Assembly (NCBI GenBank): GCA_000004695.1
Contig: CM000151.3
Coordinates: 5,952,001-6,016,000, forward strand
Direction: 5' to 3'
DNA: 64,000 bases
Origin: Dictyostelium discoideum
Taxonomy: Eukaryota
How positions within the stretch are numbered: position 1 is the first letter of the stretch; every line of letters starts with the position of its first letter. Shown piece by piece: positions 31,411 through 38,903 of this stretch. The position numbers were made by a program, and so were the translations under genes. Below the pieces are notes generated by a model. That model was not told the DNA's origin. It ran no database searches and was given only the letters and a program-made list of their open reading frames with translations.

Positions 31411-31915
31411 ACGCACTATGGACATGGTTTCAAAGTTGGAAAGTCCTAAAAAAAAAAAAAAAGCTTCAAATTCATTATGGATTCTATTGGATCATTATAC
31501 AAAACATTGTAAGATTTCCCAAAGAATTCATAAAAGTAATAATGTTTTCATTGGTTTCAATATTAATGAAAGATATTTTGGTATGATTGCACTGACGAAG
31601 AATGTAAAAAGAAAACACAACAAAAAAAAATTCAAATAAAACTAAATCAAAAAAAAACCATAAAACAATGGAATTCGATGAAGATTTTTTCAATTAAAAT
31701 TCTATAAAAATAAAAAACAAAATAAAAAAAATAAATTTTATAAAAAAAAAAAATGTTTGAAAATATAAAATCATTAATCTTCACAGCAGTTTCTTTATTA
31801 TTCTCTTTTTTTGTTATCATAGTGATTCAATTAAAATCTTGGTGAGGCAGTTTTGGAAACAATAGACGATTCATAAACCCCAAACTTCATTACAACAAGA
31901 ATCATTAAAATTACA

Positions 31916-32503
31916 ATGTACATGCAAACCATTATAAAACAATCGAAAAGTATCGATGAAGATTTGGTACAAGGAACTAAAAAATGGGAAGAAGCAAGAG
32001 AGTAGTATTCTTTAACTGGAAGTAGATTAGCTGCTGCCATTGGAATTGATCGATACACTTCACAACATGATATAAAATTAATATTGGCGAAAAAGAAAAC
32101 CCCATTCTTTAGTGACTACTGTAAAAAGGCAATGGGACATGGAAAACACCAAGAACCAAAAGCAAGAGAATTTTATTTTAATGAATTGGAGACTTCAATT
32201 ATCGAAAAGGGTATCTTTCCATTGCCAGGCGACAAAAGAATTGGATGTTCTCCTGATAGGGTAATTTACACAACAGTACCTGGTAAAGATGGAGTTTTAC
32301 AGCGTGAAGGAGTTATTGAAATTAAATGTCCACTATCTGCCACGAACTTCAGTGGCCTAAAGAATGGTAGAAAACCTGATGCCTTAGCTAATGCTCAGAA
32401 AATACCTCTAGATTACATTCCACAAATATTTGCAAACATGGCATGTACTGGGGCACAATGGTGTGATTATATATGTTGGGTTCCAGGTGGTATACTTTTG
32501 TAG
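31916..32503 (+). pseudogene. YqaJ-type viral recombinase / lambda-exonuclease-like (PD-(D/E)xK) nuclease domain gene. It is disrupted by an in-frame TAG at ~32003-32005 and truncated at its C-terminus.
   Basis: The translation reads MYMQTIIKQSKSIDEDLVQGTKKWEEARE*YSLTGSRLAAAIGIDRYTSQHDIKL...GHGKHQEPKAREFYFNELETSIIEKGIFPLPGDKRIGCSPDRVIY...DGVLQREGVIEIKCPLSATNF...IPLDYIPQIFANMACTGAQWCDYICWVPGG. This matches the YqaJ pattern: W..R.G.iTaS, then gasPDg, then ilEiKCP, then Y..QvQ.Q. The domain stops early at ...GGILL*. Confidence 0.65.
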
Positions 32504-32717
32504 AAGGGTATTCTTTGATACAAATGTATGGAAATTTATTTATTCGTTATCAAAATTATTTATAGATACACCTTTAAATGAAATACCTTTAAAGAATGAA
32601 AAAACATTAATAATAAATACATTACTCTTACAGAAACTTAAAGTTTTAAATCCACACCTAAATATTCATGTACGAACTAAATTATCAAAAAAAATAATAA
32701 AAAATAAAAAAAATAAT

Positions 32718-33120
32718 TTCTAATGGCTTATAATAATAATTCTTTTATTTTAAAATAATAAAAAATAGAAAAAGTTTTAAAAAAAAATAATAAAAAAAAA
32801 AATTCTAATGGCTTTTATAAAGATTATTTTAAAATTGAAAAAAATAAAAAAATTTAAATTTGTAAACTGATTAATGTTACACTATTAATGTCTTCGAAAT
32901 ATCTATTGAATTTTCTAAAGATATTTGAAGGTTTCAGAGAAACAGTTTTTTAGGAATAATTAATGATTTTTTCTAATGGTTTTTCTAATGATTTTCAGTA
33001 TAATGATTTTTAAGATAATAAAAAATTGATTTTTTTTTGGGGTTTTGGGGAAAAGATATTTATTGGAGAATATTTCCTAGTTTCTTTATAATCATTTTAC
33101 AAAAAAAAATTTTCTAACGG
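32718..33120. repeat. Array of five TTCTAA(T/C)GG motifs spaced 15-170 bp apart, with two ~100-bp tandem units at 32960-33200.
   Basis: The motifs lie at about 32718, 32803, 32971, 32983 and 33112. The two ~100-bp units share gg(g)tttt(a)gg(g/t)gaaaaga(t/a)atttatt(g/a)g(a/g)gaat. Confidence 0.4.
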
Positions 33121-33631
33121 TTTGATTATAATCATCATGGGGTTTAGGTGAAAAGAAATTTATTAGGGAATGTTTTGTTTTTCAATTCATTTTCAAAAAT
33201 ATATAAATAATGGTTAATGTAAATTTTTGTAAGGTACCAAGAGGAAAGAATGGAGAAAATGTTAAAGTATGTCTATTCATATAGTTAAAAAAAAATATAA
33301 ATTTATTAAATATAAATATAAATTAACATCATTTTTTTCTTATTTTTTTTATAGGTTCTTAATAATGATTATTTGACAATCATACAGTTTAAAATTAAAA
33401 AATTGTTTTAAACCATCACTTTTTTTGAACACATGAAAATAAATAAGAAATAAAAATAAAAAGATAAAAAAAGATTTTTTTTTTTTTTTTTATTTTATAA
33501 TTATTCTTGTCGTCAGTATTGTTACTATAATTAATCCCATGAGTTTTTTTTATTATTATTTTTAATTCTTTTATATTTGAGATGATTATTATTAATTAAA
33601 TGACTTTGAGTTTTTTTTTTTATTTTTCTAT

Positions 33632-33806
33632 GCCCAAAATTACCATATTAATTTCGGCAGCCATATTAATTTCAGCCTAAAATAGTTGGTCTGTGCATGC
33701 CAAAATAATATGGCTGCTGAAATTAATATGGTATTACTAGCAGACATAAGTCCCATGCCAAAACTATCATATTAATTTCAGCAGCCATATTAATTTTGGC
33801 ATGGGA
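33632..33806. repeat. Composite palindromic repeat. A ~40-bp unit (TGCC(C)AAAAyTAyCATATTAATTTCrGCAGCCATATTAATTT) occurs as direct, inverted, direct copies, and the second and third copies form a ~38-bp-arm hairpin.
   Basis: Unit A is 33632-33677, unit B (inverted) 33696-33733, unit C 33751-33806. B is the reverse complement of C with a ~35-nt loop. It lies immediately upstream of the A32-like ATPase fragment. Confidence 0.7.
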
Positions 33807-36525: not shown

Positions 36526-36845
36526 AAAAAAAAAAGGATCAATAAAATAATTTTTAATAAAATTTTCATTTGGAGATAGTTATTTATATGAAGTATAATA
36601 TAATAAAAATAAAAAAATAAAAAAAATTTATACAAAAATAAAATGGTGAGAAAAATATTAATGTTTTTGAGTAAATTAGGTAAAAATTAAAAAATAATTT
36701 TTTTTATTTATTATTTTTTTTTTTTAATTTACAAATTTATTTATTATTTATTTATAATTTCTCACTTAAAAAATTAAGTAGTCATTGTTATTATTATTTT
36801 TTTTATTTTTTTTTTATTTTTATTTATTATTTTTTTTATTTTTTT

Positions 36846-38095
36846 TTGTTTTTATTTATTTTTTTTTTTATTTTTTTTTTGCTGTATATCGGTAAAGCAT
36901 CCCATCAAGAAGGAAGGGGTTTGTACAACAGAGGTTACACAGATCTAACTGGTGGCTCAAGGAGATGGGGGAATCCAAATTCAGACCCACCAGAAATGGC
37001 AAATGCTGAAGTTTTAATGTATTATAGAGGTTTTGATGGTCCAGTTGCTGGTCATGCTGAGTGGTGGTTCCTTTCAGTATTTGGGTGTCCAGAAAATAGT
37101 TTCAACGAGGGTGGTTTAAGGACATCTGAACACAGTTATGGCGCAGGTCAATGGAATTTTTTCCATGCAAATGCTCCCCCAGTTAATGTTCGTCAATATA
37201 TTATAAATCAAGATCCATCCCCCGGTTTTTTTTTAGATTTCAAAACTATCCATCTGCTCCAAGTATTATAAGAAGAATTGTTGAATGTGAAACTGAACGA
37301 TTACACGCTGAAGGTCTTTCAGTTAAAGTTCCTGGTCTTCAAAATCAAGTGGTACATTTTCAAAATCAAGTGGTAAATCTTCAAAATGCAAACGAACTAT
37401 TGACAAACTATAATGCTTATTTGGCTGCAGCTCTTCTTAATGCTATGCCTCAGATTCCAAATCTAGATGGTTTTCTACCAGTATACGGTCCTGGGTTGGA
37501 AGTTTCAAGTGAAGCTATTCGTAATTGGAATGAAGCAAGAAAAAATGGCGGTGGTGGTATTGGTGGTGGTATCGGTGGCGGTGGTATTGGTGGTATTGGT
37601 GGTATCGGTGGGGTAGATGATGGTAAAAAGGGTGATGGTAAAAGAGGTTCAGGTGGTGCGGATGGTGCACATGATGGTTGGTTAAAATCTGGCTGTATTT
37701 GTCCAGAAACTCCTCCTTGTCCAGTAGTAATTCCATGTCCAGAGCCAGTGGTTTGTAATATAGCAAAAATTCAAATTCAATTGAATTCAACCATAAAAAG
37801 TTTGGATGAATGCAAAAAACAAAAGGACCAAACCAATGATAACCTCAACGTCTGCAAGTCCCATAAAGATGAGACACAAGATTGGCTCACCGACTGTCAA
37901 AAAGAATATGTTAAACAAACAAGTCATTCATCCAAAGATGATACTCTAATTTCTCTCAGAAACTGCCAAGCCGAATACCAAAAAGAAACATTCAAAAAAG
38001 ATAAGCTCTGCCGTGGTTTGTCCAAACATATCATTGGTTATCTCGATTTCTGTGAAGATAAGGTAGAAAAGCTCAAACTCGCTAATTGTGAATAG
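36846..38095 (+). CDS. Hypothetical ~415-aa protein with a Gly-rich (GGIGG)n segment, a CxxPxxPPCP Cys/Pro cluster and a Cys-containing coiled-coil tail. It is intact only if a +1 shift occurs in a T9 homopolymer at ~37224-37232.
   Basis: ORF 36846..37271 ends 75 bp before ORF 37349..38095, which is in the +1 frame. With T10 instead of T9, ...DPSPGFF joins FRFQNYPSAPSIIRRIVECETERLHAEG...VHFQNQVVNLQNANELL... continuously. This could be a sequencing error, a pseudogene or a slippage site. Confidence 0.45.
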
Positions 38096-38518
38096 TTTTC
38101 TCATTTTTAAAAAAAAAAAAAAACAAAAAAAAAAAAATCATATAATGGTTTCCTTTATGAAATCAATAAAAAAATTCTTTAAATAAAATTTTTAATCTTA
38201 TTTTAAAAAAATTCTTTTAATGAAATCCATTATTTTCATTTTTTATAATTTTATTGAACTTTATTGAAAATAATTAGATATTGTTATTTCCAATGGTTTT
38301 AGATTGATAACGGTATAGATGTGACCATTAAATAGAAAACTATTAAAAATTGAGCCAAAGAAAAATCAACGATTTTTAATGGTTGTTTAAAGATTTCCTA
38401 TAGAAAATTTAAAATGATTTTTTTAAAAATATTTCAAAACCAATGTCATAAAATAAAAATTCTCAATTACTAAATATAAACATGTATAGATCATTAGGTT
38501 TATTTTTAAAAAAAAACG

Positions 38519-38773
38519 ATGGGTGCCCGTCAAAAAAAAGAAATTGAAGCAGATCCTGAAAGGGTAAAATTAATAAAAATTAAAAAAACACAAAAAAGAT
38601 TGGCCGAACAAGAAGAAAGAAGAAGGTTGATGCAAGAAGAAAGTGAAAGAAGACGATTGCAAAGACTTAGAGAAAAACAAGAGCCAATTAGAACCTTTGC
38701 AACTGCACAAGAAGCTCAACGATATATACCCAAACCTGGTAACTTTGCACGTAAAAGAGGTGCTAGAAATTAA
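38519..38773 (+). CDS. Small (84 aa) Lys/Arg/Glu-rich protein.
   Basis: MGARQKKEIEADPERVKLIKIKKTQKRLAEQEERRRLMQEESERRRLQRLREKQEPIRTFATAQEAQRYIPKPGNFARKRGARN. Its codon usage is less AT-biased than the surrounding DNA. I did not recognise the family. Confidence 0.35.
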   Translation: MGARQKKEIEADPERVKLIKIKKTQKRLAEQEERRRLMQEESERRRLQRLREKQEPIRTFATAQEAQRYIPKPGNFARKRGARN

Positions 38774-38857
38774 AAAAGAAAAAAGAAAAATAATTGAAAG
38801 AAATAAAAAAAAAAAAATTAAAAATTAAAAAAAAAATAAACTACATCTCTTATATAA

Positions 38858-38903
38858 GAGGTGGCAATAGATAATAAAAGTACAATTAGAATTATTTTTT
38901 TCA
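38858..38903 (-). pseudogene. 5'-truncated stub (signal-peptide codons only) of a Cys-peptide family gene. It sits at the junction where duplicate block III begins.
   Basis: The minus strand reads ATGAAAAAAATAATTCTAATTGTACTTTTATTATCTATTGCCACCT..., which is MKKIILIVLLLSIAT, and then the homology stops. Confidence 0.55.

Follow-up and report, generated by a model that had tools for sequence, protein, structure and literature searches.

A rearranged fragment of a probable endogenous large DNA virus at the joint of a host duplication on Dictyostelium discoideum chromosome 2

We analysed a 64,000-nucleotide stretch of chromosome 2 of Dictyostelium discoideum AX4 (GenBank assembly GCA_000004695.1, contig CM000151.3, positions 5,952,001 to 6,016,000 of the forward strand), an AT-rich region with 23% GC that is referred to below, over its whole length, as the window. 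Comparison of related loci with the whole window confined viral homology to positions 31411-38860, here called the island; it was looked for in the rest of the window and none was found there. The island holds remnants of genes for a YqaJ-type exonuclease, an A32-like packaging ATPase and a Gly/Cys-rich protein, together with a palindromic repeat and several short open reading frames (ORFs). It lies in a tandem array of host genes, precisely where two direct copies of a 1.33-kb host segment meet (Table 1). Each of its coding blocks has a counterpart in a wild D. discoideum strain, where it is part of a virus-like element that spans at least 45 kb. Judged from these comparisons, the island very probably derives from an endogenous large double-stranded DNA virus of the type that combines a capsid with an A32 ATPase (Bamfordvirae); it is a ~7.45-kb fragment with internal rearrangements and pseudogenised genes.

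Table 1. Features of the island and of the flanking host duplication, by position in the window.
Feature	Position	Strand	Remark
R, left copy of the 1.33-kb host segment	30088..31410	no strand	Pairwise alignment with 38857-40181
Block A	31411-33372		3' end of the gene upstream of YqaJ, YqaJ gene, first exon of the 568-aa gene
3' end of truncated viral gene, probably primase C-terminal domain	31411..31690	+	Left island end lies mid-gene
YqaJ-type exonuclease pseudogene	31916..32723	+	PF09588 and PHROG matches
Intergenic spacer between YqaJ and the 568-aa gene	32718..33123	+	Five copies of the motif TTCTAATGGYTT
Remnant of the 5' end of a 568/579-aa viral gene	33173..33372	+	ATG at 33210
Block B	33448-33808		Palindromic repeat
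Inverted-repeat transposon-like fragment (composite palindrome)	33448..33808	no strand	Matches L004 16195-16554
Block C	33809-35746		ATPase, 126-aa ORF, 108-aa ORF, last 65 codons of the 274-aa gene
A32-like packaging ATPase pseudogene and upstream region	33809..34825	+	Coding part 33888-34825
126-aa ORF, intact, no function assigned	34809..35189	-	Conserved ATPase neighbour; 98.9% nucleotide identity to L006 11117-11497
108-aa ORF, no function assigned	35198..35524	-	99.1% nucleotide identity to L006 11506-11862
C-terminal 65 codons of a 274-aa viral gene	35529..35726	-	100% identical to the end of L006 11868-12692
Block D	35745-36336		115-aa ORF
115-aa ORF, small gene family repeated within viral elements	35883..36230	-	88% nucleotide identity to L005 6504-7083
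Block E	36335-36880		Inverted; 5' end of the Gly/Cys-rich gene
Inverted segment, 5' coding end of the Gly/Cys-rich gene (36340-36531, minus) and upstream region	36335..36880	-	Match to L005
Block F	36879-38860		Gly/Cys-rich gene body and basic protein
Gly/Cys-rich gene body (DDB_G0275481)	36885..38095	+	Homologues in Dictyostelium
84-aa basic protein ORF	38519..38773	+	Conserved beside the Gly/Cys-rich gene in related elements
R', right copy of the 1.33-kb host segment	38857..40181	no strand	AGAG at 38857-38860 common to viral and host sequence

An original prediction, drawn from the letters of the window only, had read the island as an endogenised viral or Polinton-like element on the strength of two domains. 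This reading is now supported beyond those two domain matches, by homology and synteny with the dictyostelid elements of at least 45 kb. Homologues were found in wild D. discoideum, D. cf. discoideum, D. dimigraforme and Acytostelium, often in several copies per genome. Two of the loci compared, L006 and L007, come from D. discoideum with ACTFIR tags (GCA_054859385.1, JBTAPF010000019.1, ~2.475-2.516 Mb); L004 is from D. cf. discoideum, L005 from D. dimigraforme, and L001 is an Acytostelium contig (DF837621.1). Further copies lie close to the end of JBTAPH010000039.1. Window positions 31403-32804, 33809-33988, 34015-35746 and 37410-38886 match L006 and L007 with 82-95% nucleotide identity, and the coding parts of the island are 96-100% identical to the ACTFIR element, with synonymous divergence (dS) of 0 to 0.09. 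Aligned to the fuller element, the island proves to be a mosaic made up of six blocks, A to F. The blocks lie in the order C ... D-F ... A in the fuller element, of which the AX4 order is a circular permutation with large deletions.

Block A matches its counterpart closely, with 92% nucleotide identity between window 31403-32804 and L007 17133-18538. The exonuclease domain at 32084-32503 scored 88.7 bits against PF09588 (cut-off 22, E=5.9e-25), with further PHROG matches to exonuclease and RecE-like families, and the pseudogene shares 94% amino-acid identity with an intact 281-aa ORF at L007 17657-18502. Compared with that ORF, the AX4 frame is interrupted by an AAG to TAG change at 32003-32005, which bears out the in-frame TAG first noticed in the window, and by a frameshift near 32490-32500 besides. 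By tblastx, the truncated gene upstream weakly resembles the C-terminal end of the primase ORF in Acytostelium, from which we infer that it probably encodes the C-terminal domain of a primase. The motif repeated in the spacer downstream of YqaJ has eight of its ten window matches inside the island, against 2.7 expected for the whole window, and is also present in the equivalent D. dimigraforme spacer (L005 1470-1747); it may serve the virus as a regulatory or iteron-like repeat. What remains of the 568/579-aa gene is 81% identical to L005 2180-2394, the start of a gene called at 2221-4059. It contains a putative 88-nt GT..AG intron (33267-33354), typical for Dictyostelium, and the models of this gene in other species likewise require an intron. 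Spliceosomal introns in viral genes, if real, would imply nuclear expression or long genomic residence. The arrangement of primase and exonuclease differs between hosts: the two are annotated as a single 650-aa gene in Acytostelium (AEP primase plus YqaJ, L001 9338-11724), and L007 16224-18502 holds three separate ORFs, namely the primase domain, a 136-aa piece and YqaJ.

The ATPase pseudogene of block C (DDB_G0275725) is 95-97% identical to L006 9927-11089. It had been described as the Walker B/GRH/Q half of an A32-like ATPase. Both motifs are present, with Walker B as ILFILDD and the downstream GRH...Q motif as LGRHYHVGFMILTQ, but the gene is not simply halved: the first ~34 codons are kept (33888-33988), and Walker A has been lost through an internal replacement of a ~190-bp segment by ~26 nt at 33989-34014. 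Walker A is intact elsewhere, as GKRRSGKS in the ACTFIR copy and GKRRAGKS in the Acytostelium copy. For the window fragment alone, PF04665 was the best match at 18 bits, below the cut-off of 22.8. The fragment shares 57% amino-acid identity with an Acytostelium subglobosum protein whose full ORF has Walker A, and this Acytostelium ATPase scored 39.1 bits against Pox_A32 (PF04665), above the same cut-off. A profile built from the AX4 and Acytostelium ATPases recovered 3037 relatives, 899 of them at E<=1e-10. AX4 also carries an in-frame TAA at ~34055 (GAA to TAA), and the ACTFIR ATPase (L006 10001-11089) carries a different GAA to TAA change seven codons away (compared over window 34015-34100). 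The same gene was thus inactivated independently in the two strains. The dictyBase/NCBI model DDB_G0275725 splices around both the deletion and the stop codon.

Five short minus-strand ORFs had been reported in the island, and all of them were found. The 126-aa ORF next to the ATPase has an Acytostelium homologue with 45% amino-acid identity (L001 16069-16491), and the 108-aa ORF has a 10-aa deletion relative to its 118-aa homologue. The third is the tail of the 274-aa gene, the remainder of which was deleted at the block junction near 35745; a homologue of this gene exists in Acytostelium. The 115-aa ORF of block D has paralogues at L006 6482-6849 and L007 9113-9734. The fifth, at 36259-36525, corresponds to the 5' part of the Gly/Cys-rich gene, which lies inverted in block E; the inverted segment (36335-36880) matches L005 10465-10248 and 7452-7127 in reverse orientation with 91-92% identity. 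Residues 15-90 of the protein P0011 align to the minus strand at 36531-36352.

The body of the Gly/Cys-rich gene in block F encodes a coiled coil with NLQNQV repeats, a Gly-rich tract with GIGG/GDGKN and a Cys/Pro-rich tail, and its full-length paralogues have a signal peptide. The frameshift predicted for this gene was located in a T-run at ~37228-37236. Its 15 homologues are all from recently deposited Dictyostelium genomes, where they lie beside viral genes. The first exon of the gene model DDB_G0275481 (36395-38095) comes from the inverted 5' segment, read in antisense, and both this model and DDB_G0275725 look like pseudogene artefacts. The small basic protein seen downstream is indeed encoded by an ORF conserved in related copies, with 89% amino-acid identity and a dN/dS of 0.28 relative to L004 11840-12145.

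Only the 126-aa, 108-aa, 115-aa and 84-aa ORFs are thus open in the AX4 copy, and the 274-aa and 568-aa genes are truncated. Most likely, the 126-aa and 108-aa ORFs are still intact only because the copy is young. The island is very probably a non-functional fossil, and we expect no viral function from the AX4 copy.

The composite palindrome of block B had been counted among the features of the element. It is present, but it probably belongs to a separate inverted-repeat transposon rather than to the virus. Three ~39-nt units in forward, reverse and forward orientation occupy 33634-33796, and a 56-nt mini-palindrome at 33751-33806 is made of two termini, both with the end TCCCATGCCAAAA. A complete 1.76-kb unit in D. 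cf. discoideum (L004 14797-16554) has the same ends, TCCCATGCCAAAA, and 129-nt inverted repeats that are 97% complementary and themselves palindromic; it cuts into the viral deoxynucleoside kinase (dNK) gene. The window keeps one end region of this transposon-like unit plus the mini-palindrome. The palindrome is therefore most likely the remnant of a nested inverted-repeat transposon, judging by its match to the L004 unit. A viral terminus was considered and set aside, since the L004 unit has defined ends and interrupts dNK. The thug elements of Dictyostelium are likewise palindromic. The L004 unit encodes a 153-aa protein and adjoins a DDE_Tnp_4 gene.

The fuller element was mapped by assembling ~35 called genes from L006, L007 and L010, the last of which bridges a gap. 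The map starts with genes for proteins of 225, 362 and 133 aa, followed by the ATPase, genes of 126, 118, 274, 187, 124 and 190 aa, a 249-aa gene (two ORFs, 125 + 156 aa), genes of 436 and 701 aa and a VLTF3-like gene. It continues with a 414-aa capsid candidate, a 129-aa gene, a 770-aa gene (two ORFs, 340 + 430 aa), genes of 111, 152 and 118 aa, the Gly/Cys protein, the basic protein, genes of 151 and 460 aa, dNK, the AEP primase, a 136-aa gene, YqaJ and the 568-aa gene. The basic protein, which was not called in L007, was placed in this order by the L004/L007 alignment. Most ORFs of the element have no family match. At least ten of its genes have homologues on the Acytostelium contig, 18.6 of 25.9 kb of which was covered; here the ATPase is linked with YqaJ (annotated as fused to the AEP primase), a deoxynucleoside kinase, the homologue of the 126-aa ORF and a 416-aa candidate capsid.

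The markers that indicate a viral class lie in these related loci. The 414-aa protein scored 23.6 bits against Capsid_N (cut-off 24), the ORF at L004 1971-3110 scored 25.5 bits against Pox_VLTF3 (cut-off 25), fuller copies scored 23.8 bits against AEP_C962R (cut-off 23), and dNK of the Acytostelium copy scored 42.3 bits. With a profile of the capsid candidate, capsid variants of PBCV-1 were the top PDB matches (MCPv3, E=0.04), and the 414-aa protein is probably a capsid protein of the double-jelly-roll type. Its gene is intact at L007 694-1938, L004 3430-4674 and L010 10001-11245. The encoded proteins are identical or two residues apart between the D. discoideum strain and D. cf. discoideum, and identical copies of the gene occur two to three times per genome. 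Such near-identity suggests recent activity or recent spread of the element.

Wider searches gave few relatives. With the capsid, a scan of IMG/VR returned no match; with YqaJ and the ATPase it returned only relatives at 27-29% identity. For the ATPase, two contigs were confirmed, a giant-virus metagenome-assembled genome (GVMAG) and a 152-kb viral contig, at 27% identity. A 35-kb metagenome contig encodes a 25%-identical capsid homologue and was dismissed as a relative, having nothing else in common with the element by tblastx. Exact-sequence look-ups of the AX4 proteins gave no match. A RuvC/A22-like reading of the 190-aa protein, which has an N-terminal IDPGxVN motif, was not confirmed (best E=0.16 to RuvC, no PDB match).

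Several observations weigh against the viral interpretation or limit its reach. By profile scans of its ORFs, the window itself has no capsid, VLTF3 or polymerase gene. The viral class rests on the related loci; there, the Pfam scores of capsid and VLTF3 barely reach the threshold or narrowly miss it. No DNA or RNA polymerase, integrase or protease was recognised in those parts of the fuller element that were sampled. AlphaFold2 models were too poor for a fold search, both for the capsid candidate (3-sequence alignment, pLDDT 36) and for the Gly/Cys-rich protein (14 sequences, pLDDT 41). The stop codon in the ATPase of the fuller ACTFIR copy means that no copy is proven active. The GC content at third codon positions (GC3) is host-like, at 0.15-0.27 in the Dictyostelium copies and 0.45-0.55 in the Acytostelium copies. 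A comparison of codon usage between island and host does not discriminate, and composition was dropped as evidence; the match to the host speaks for a long association with these hosts. Finally, a single event behind both the insertion and the flanking duplication is something that we infer from the end product.

The structure of the locus was confirmed. The original prediction had the island bracketed by duplicate blocks, as was observed; its description of them as almost base-for-base identical was overstated, with a measured identity of 97.9% between 30088-31410 and 38857-40181 (1328 aligned positions, 20 mismatches and 8 gap positions). The left copy, R, starts within a gene for a small Cys-rich secreted protein (29905-30135, minus strand), and for this reason the right copy, R', has just the first ~16 codons of that gene. 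Further host paralogues of the R block, with 72-80% identity, lie at 28.8, 42.0 and 45.3 kb in the tandem array, and R had no match in the viral loci when the window was compared with the related elements. On the left, the match to L007 begins exactly at 31411, with only AA in common with the host side. On the right, viral homology stops at ...TATATAAGAG, position 38860, where AGAG is common with the start of R'. The breakpoints at both ends fall inside viral genes or spacers and are not natural viral ends. An artefact of the AX4 assembly was ruled out, as the same structure is found in an independent D. discoideum assembly (GCA_054883475.1), which is 99.74% identical to window 26368-48115 with the island and both duplicates included.

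Viral DNA was joined to the chromosome at the microhomologies AA and AGAG, and we hypothesize that a single round of repair or replication produced the insertion together with the 1.33-kb duplication. Viral DNA would have served as filler in this event, whether by microhomology-mediated end joining or by template switching. Later steps would have added more deletions, the inverted-repeat transposon fragment and point lesions. Templated or filler-DNA insertions made by microhomology-mediated end joining or break-induced replication offer the closest comparison, as the island is foreign DNA exactly at the joint of a direct duplication, with 2-4 nt of microhomology at both junctions and a mosaic insert that includes an inverted block. 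It differs from them in that its mechanism is read from the end product only, and some internal rearrangements may pre- or post-date the insertion. The locus illustrates cleanly the capture of foreign DNA at the junction of a duplication.

Two other histories could leave direct repeats around an insert. A single crossover with a circle classically leaves an insert with R on both sides, and homologous (Campbell-type) entry of a viral or episomal circle with R already captured would fit both this outcome and the circularly permuted block order. We regard it as a weaker and rather improbable alternative, given that capture of R by the virus would be an extra prior event, that blastn found R in no viral copy at any locus compared, and that microhomology at both junctions fits end joining equally well. 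On a far more remote reading, the 1.33-kb repeats would be long terminal repeats, with the island as the interior of the mobile element between them. Direct repeats of 97.9% identity around a 7.4-kb interior do have this outline. Against it, the repeat starts in a host gene and has diverged host paralogues in the array without adjoining viral sequence, the viral blocks of the island have no R beside them in other genomes, profile scans found no reverse transcriptase or integrase between the repeats, and both junctions lie mid-gene in viral sequence. The retrotransposon reading was rejected, the repeats being host DNA with host paralogues.

As to the origin of the genes, it is very unlikely that they are host genes, or single horizontally acquired and domesticated genes, at an ordinary dictyostelid locus. 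The host-like GC3, the two dictyBase gene models and the intact 126-aa and 108-aa ORFs would be in keeping with such an origin; against this, most genes are disrupted, and the annotated models splice around lesions or use antisense sequence. The open small ORFs differ from their homologues by too few substitutions for a selection test, and the dN/dS of the intact ORFs, resting on 3-4 substitutions, is uninformative. In other genomes the same gene set is accompanied by capsid and VLTF3 genes, and both its chromosomal site and its copy number vary. A stronger competitor, although still an unlikely one, is that the island derives from a Polinton/Maverick or Polinton-like virus instead of an NCLDV-like (nucleocytoplasmic large DNA virus-like) or Yaravirus-like lineage. 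Integrated and multi-copy, the element has a capsid gene alongside its A32 ATPase; Polintons whose capsid genes are divergent have been reported from Acytostelium subglobosum and Heterostelium album (PMC7805220), and dictyostelid pPolB sequences are known (PMC4409740). The partial coverage of the Acytostelium contig leaves room for this reading, as does the weak Integrase_H2C2 match of the 701-aa protein (L006 16923-19028; 17.8 bits, cut-off 25.5), which has no rve core. Opposed to it are the VLTF3, dNK and C962R-type AEP primase genes, a capsid candidate that matches the NCLDV-type Capsid_N model just under its cut-off, and a size of at least 45 kb that exceeds the 15-25 kb of Polintons and the 14-40 kb of Polinton-like viruses (PMC12220804). 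Among the window ORFs and the larger ORFs scanned from six loci (L001, L004-L007 and L010), no match was found to pPolB/PolB models, the rve core or an adenain/Ulp1-type protease. In the window the profile scans returned YqaJ and, through its orthologue, A32, and the element is not a Polinton in the strict sense of one with pPolB, rve integrase and protease.

Taken as a fragment of a capsid-encoding virus, the island would belong to the broad capsid-plus-A32-ATPase group. Its fuller relatives lack the defining genes of Polintons in the scans above and have some NCLDV core markers, at threshold. With Polintons and Polinton-like viruses the element appears to share this broad lineage, genome integration and copy-number expansion, whereas it is larger and has VLTF3, dNK, AEP primase and YqaJ. 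The island joins a known kind, the endogenous viral elements of protists. Insertions of NCLDVs are known in Acanthamoeba, algae and oomycetes (PMC5203793, PMC11702301). Similar to these endogenous elements of the Nucleocytoviricota ("GEVEs"), the dictyostelid element is integrated with a probable capsid gene and with A32 ATPase and VLTF3-type genes, and is multi-copy, variably decayed and placed among normal host genes. It differs in having no recognisable PolB, RNA polymerase or D5 helicase in the parts read, in its mostly unmatched genes, in marker scores at threshold and in a composition that is host-like rather than standing out; no helicase domain was found beside the AEP_C962R primase in the fuller copies. 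Yaravirus brasiliensis, a virus of Acanthamoeba with a genome of ~45 kb and >90% ORFans, encodes an exonuclease/recombinase, an A32 ATPase, a primase-polymerase and a divergent double-jelly-roll capsid, and the best database match of its gene 28 is a hypothetical protein of Acytostelium subglobosum (bioRxiv 10.1101/2020.01.28.923185). By published description only, the two are alike in amoebozoan host, size, unmatched genes and the set of exonuclease, ATPase, primase and divergent capsid. Yaravirus differs in being GC-rich (genes 46-65% GC) and in having no integrated form known, and the likeness may serve as a lead only.

The AX4 reference strain thus appears to carry the wreckage of a capsid-encoding DNA virus, and it has further relics of the same virus family. 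More tentatively, the island may be a reference-genome fossil of an undescribed lineage of ORFan-rich, capsid-encoding DNA viruses of ~45-60 kb that infect social amoebae, are maybe related to Yaravirus, and were recently or are still active among wild members of the D. discoideum complex. They would then be the first dictyostelid viruses known to us. Dictyostelium is a major model for host-pathogen biology, and we know of no virus reported for it. The value of the island is as a pointer to wild relatives, whose copies are much fuller and have intact capsid genes, and through which the question of whether social amoebae have viruses becomes testable. With capsid, A32, VLTF3, primase and YqaJ and no recognisable polymerase, the gene set may bridge Polinton-like viruses, Yaravirus and small NCLDVs. 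No published account of this locus or element was found in the full-text literature, the coverage of which was incomplete, so that a prior description is possible; the search yielded only the Acytostelium/Heterostelium Polintons and general gene-transfer screens.

The genes around the island are ordinary host genes, e.g. those for an Mtr4 helicase, a cyclin and an ALMT-like transporter. The tandem array consists of diverged units, each with a gene for a small secreted Cys-rich protein and one for a ~300-aa P-loop protein without a Pfam family (28760-30280, 42027-43040 and 45255-46470; 40358-41365 and 44484-45067). Outside the window, AX4 chromosome 2 also has two capsid-gene fragments, DDB_G0277465 and DDB_G0277467. 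The Gly/Cys-rich paralogue DDB_G0269068 is found on a second AX4 record, 4.92 Mb long. Far from the island, the ORF at 10692-11699 contains a 129-nt repeat in eight head-to-tail copies that are 80-90% identical (window 10781-11982).

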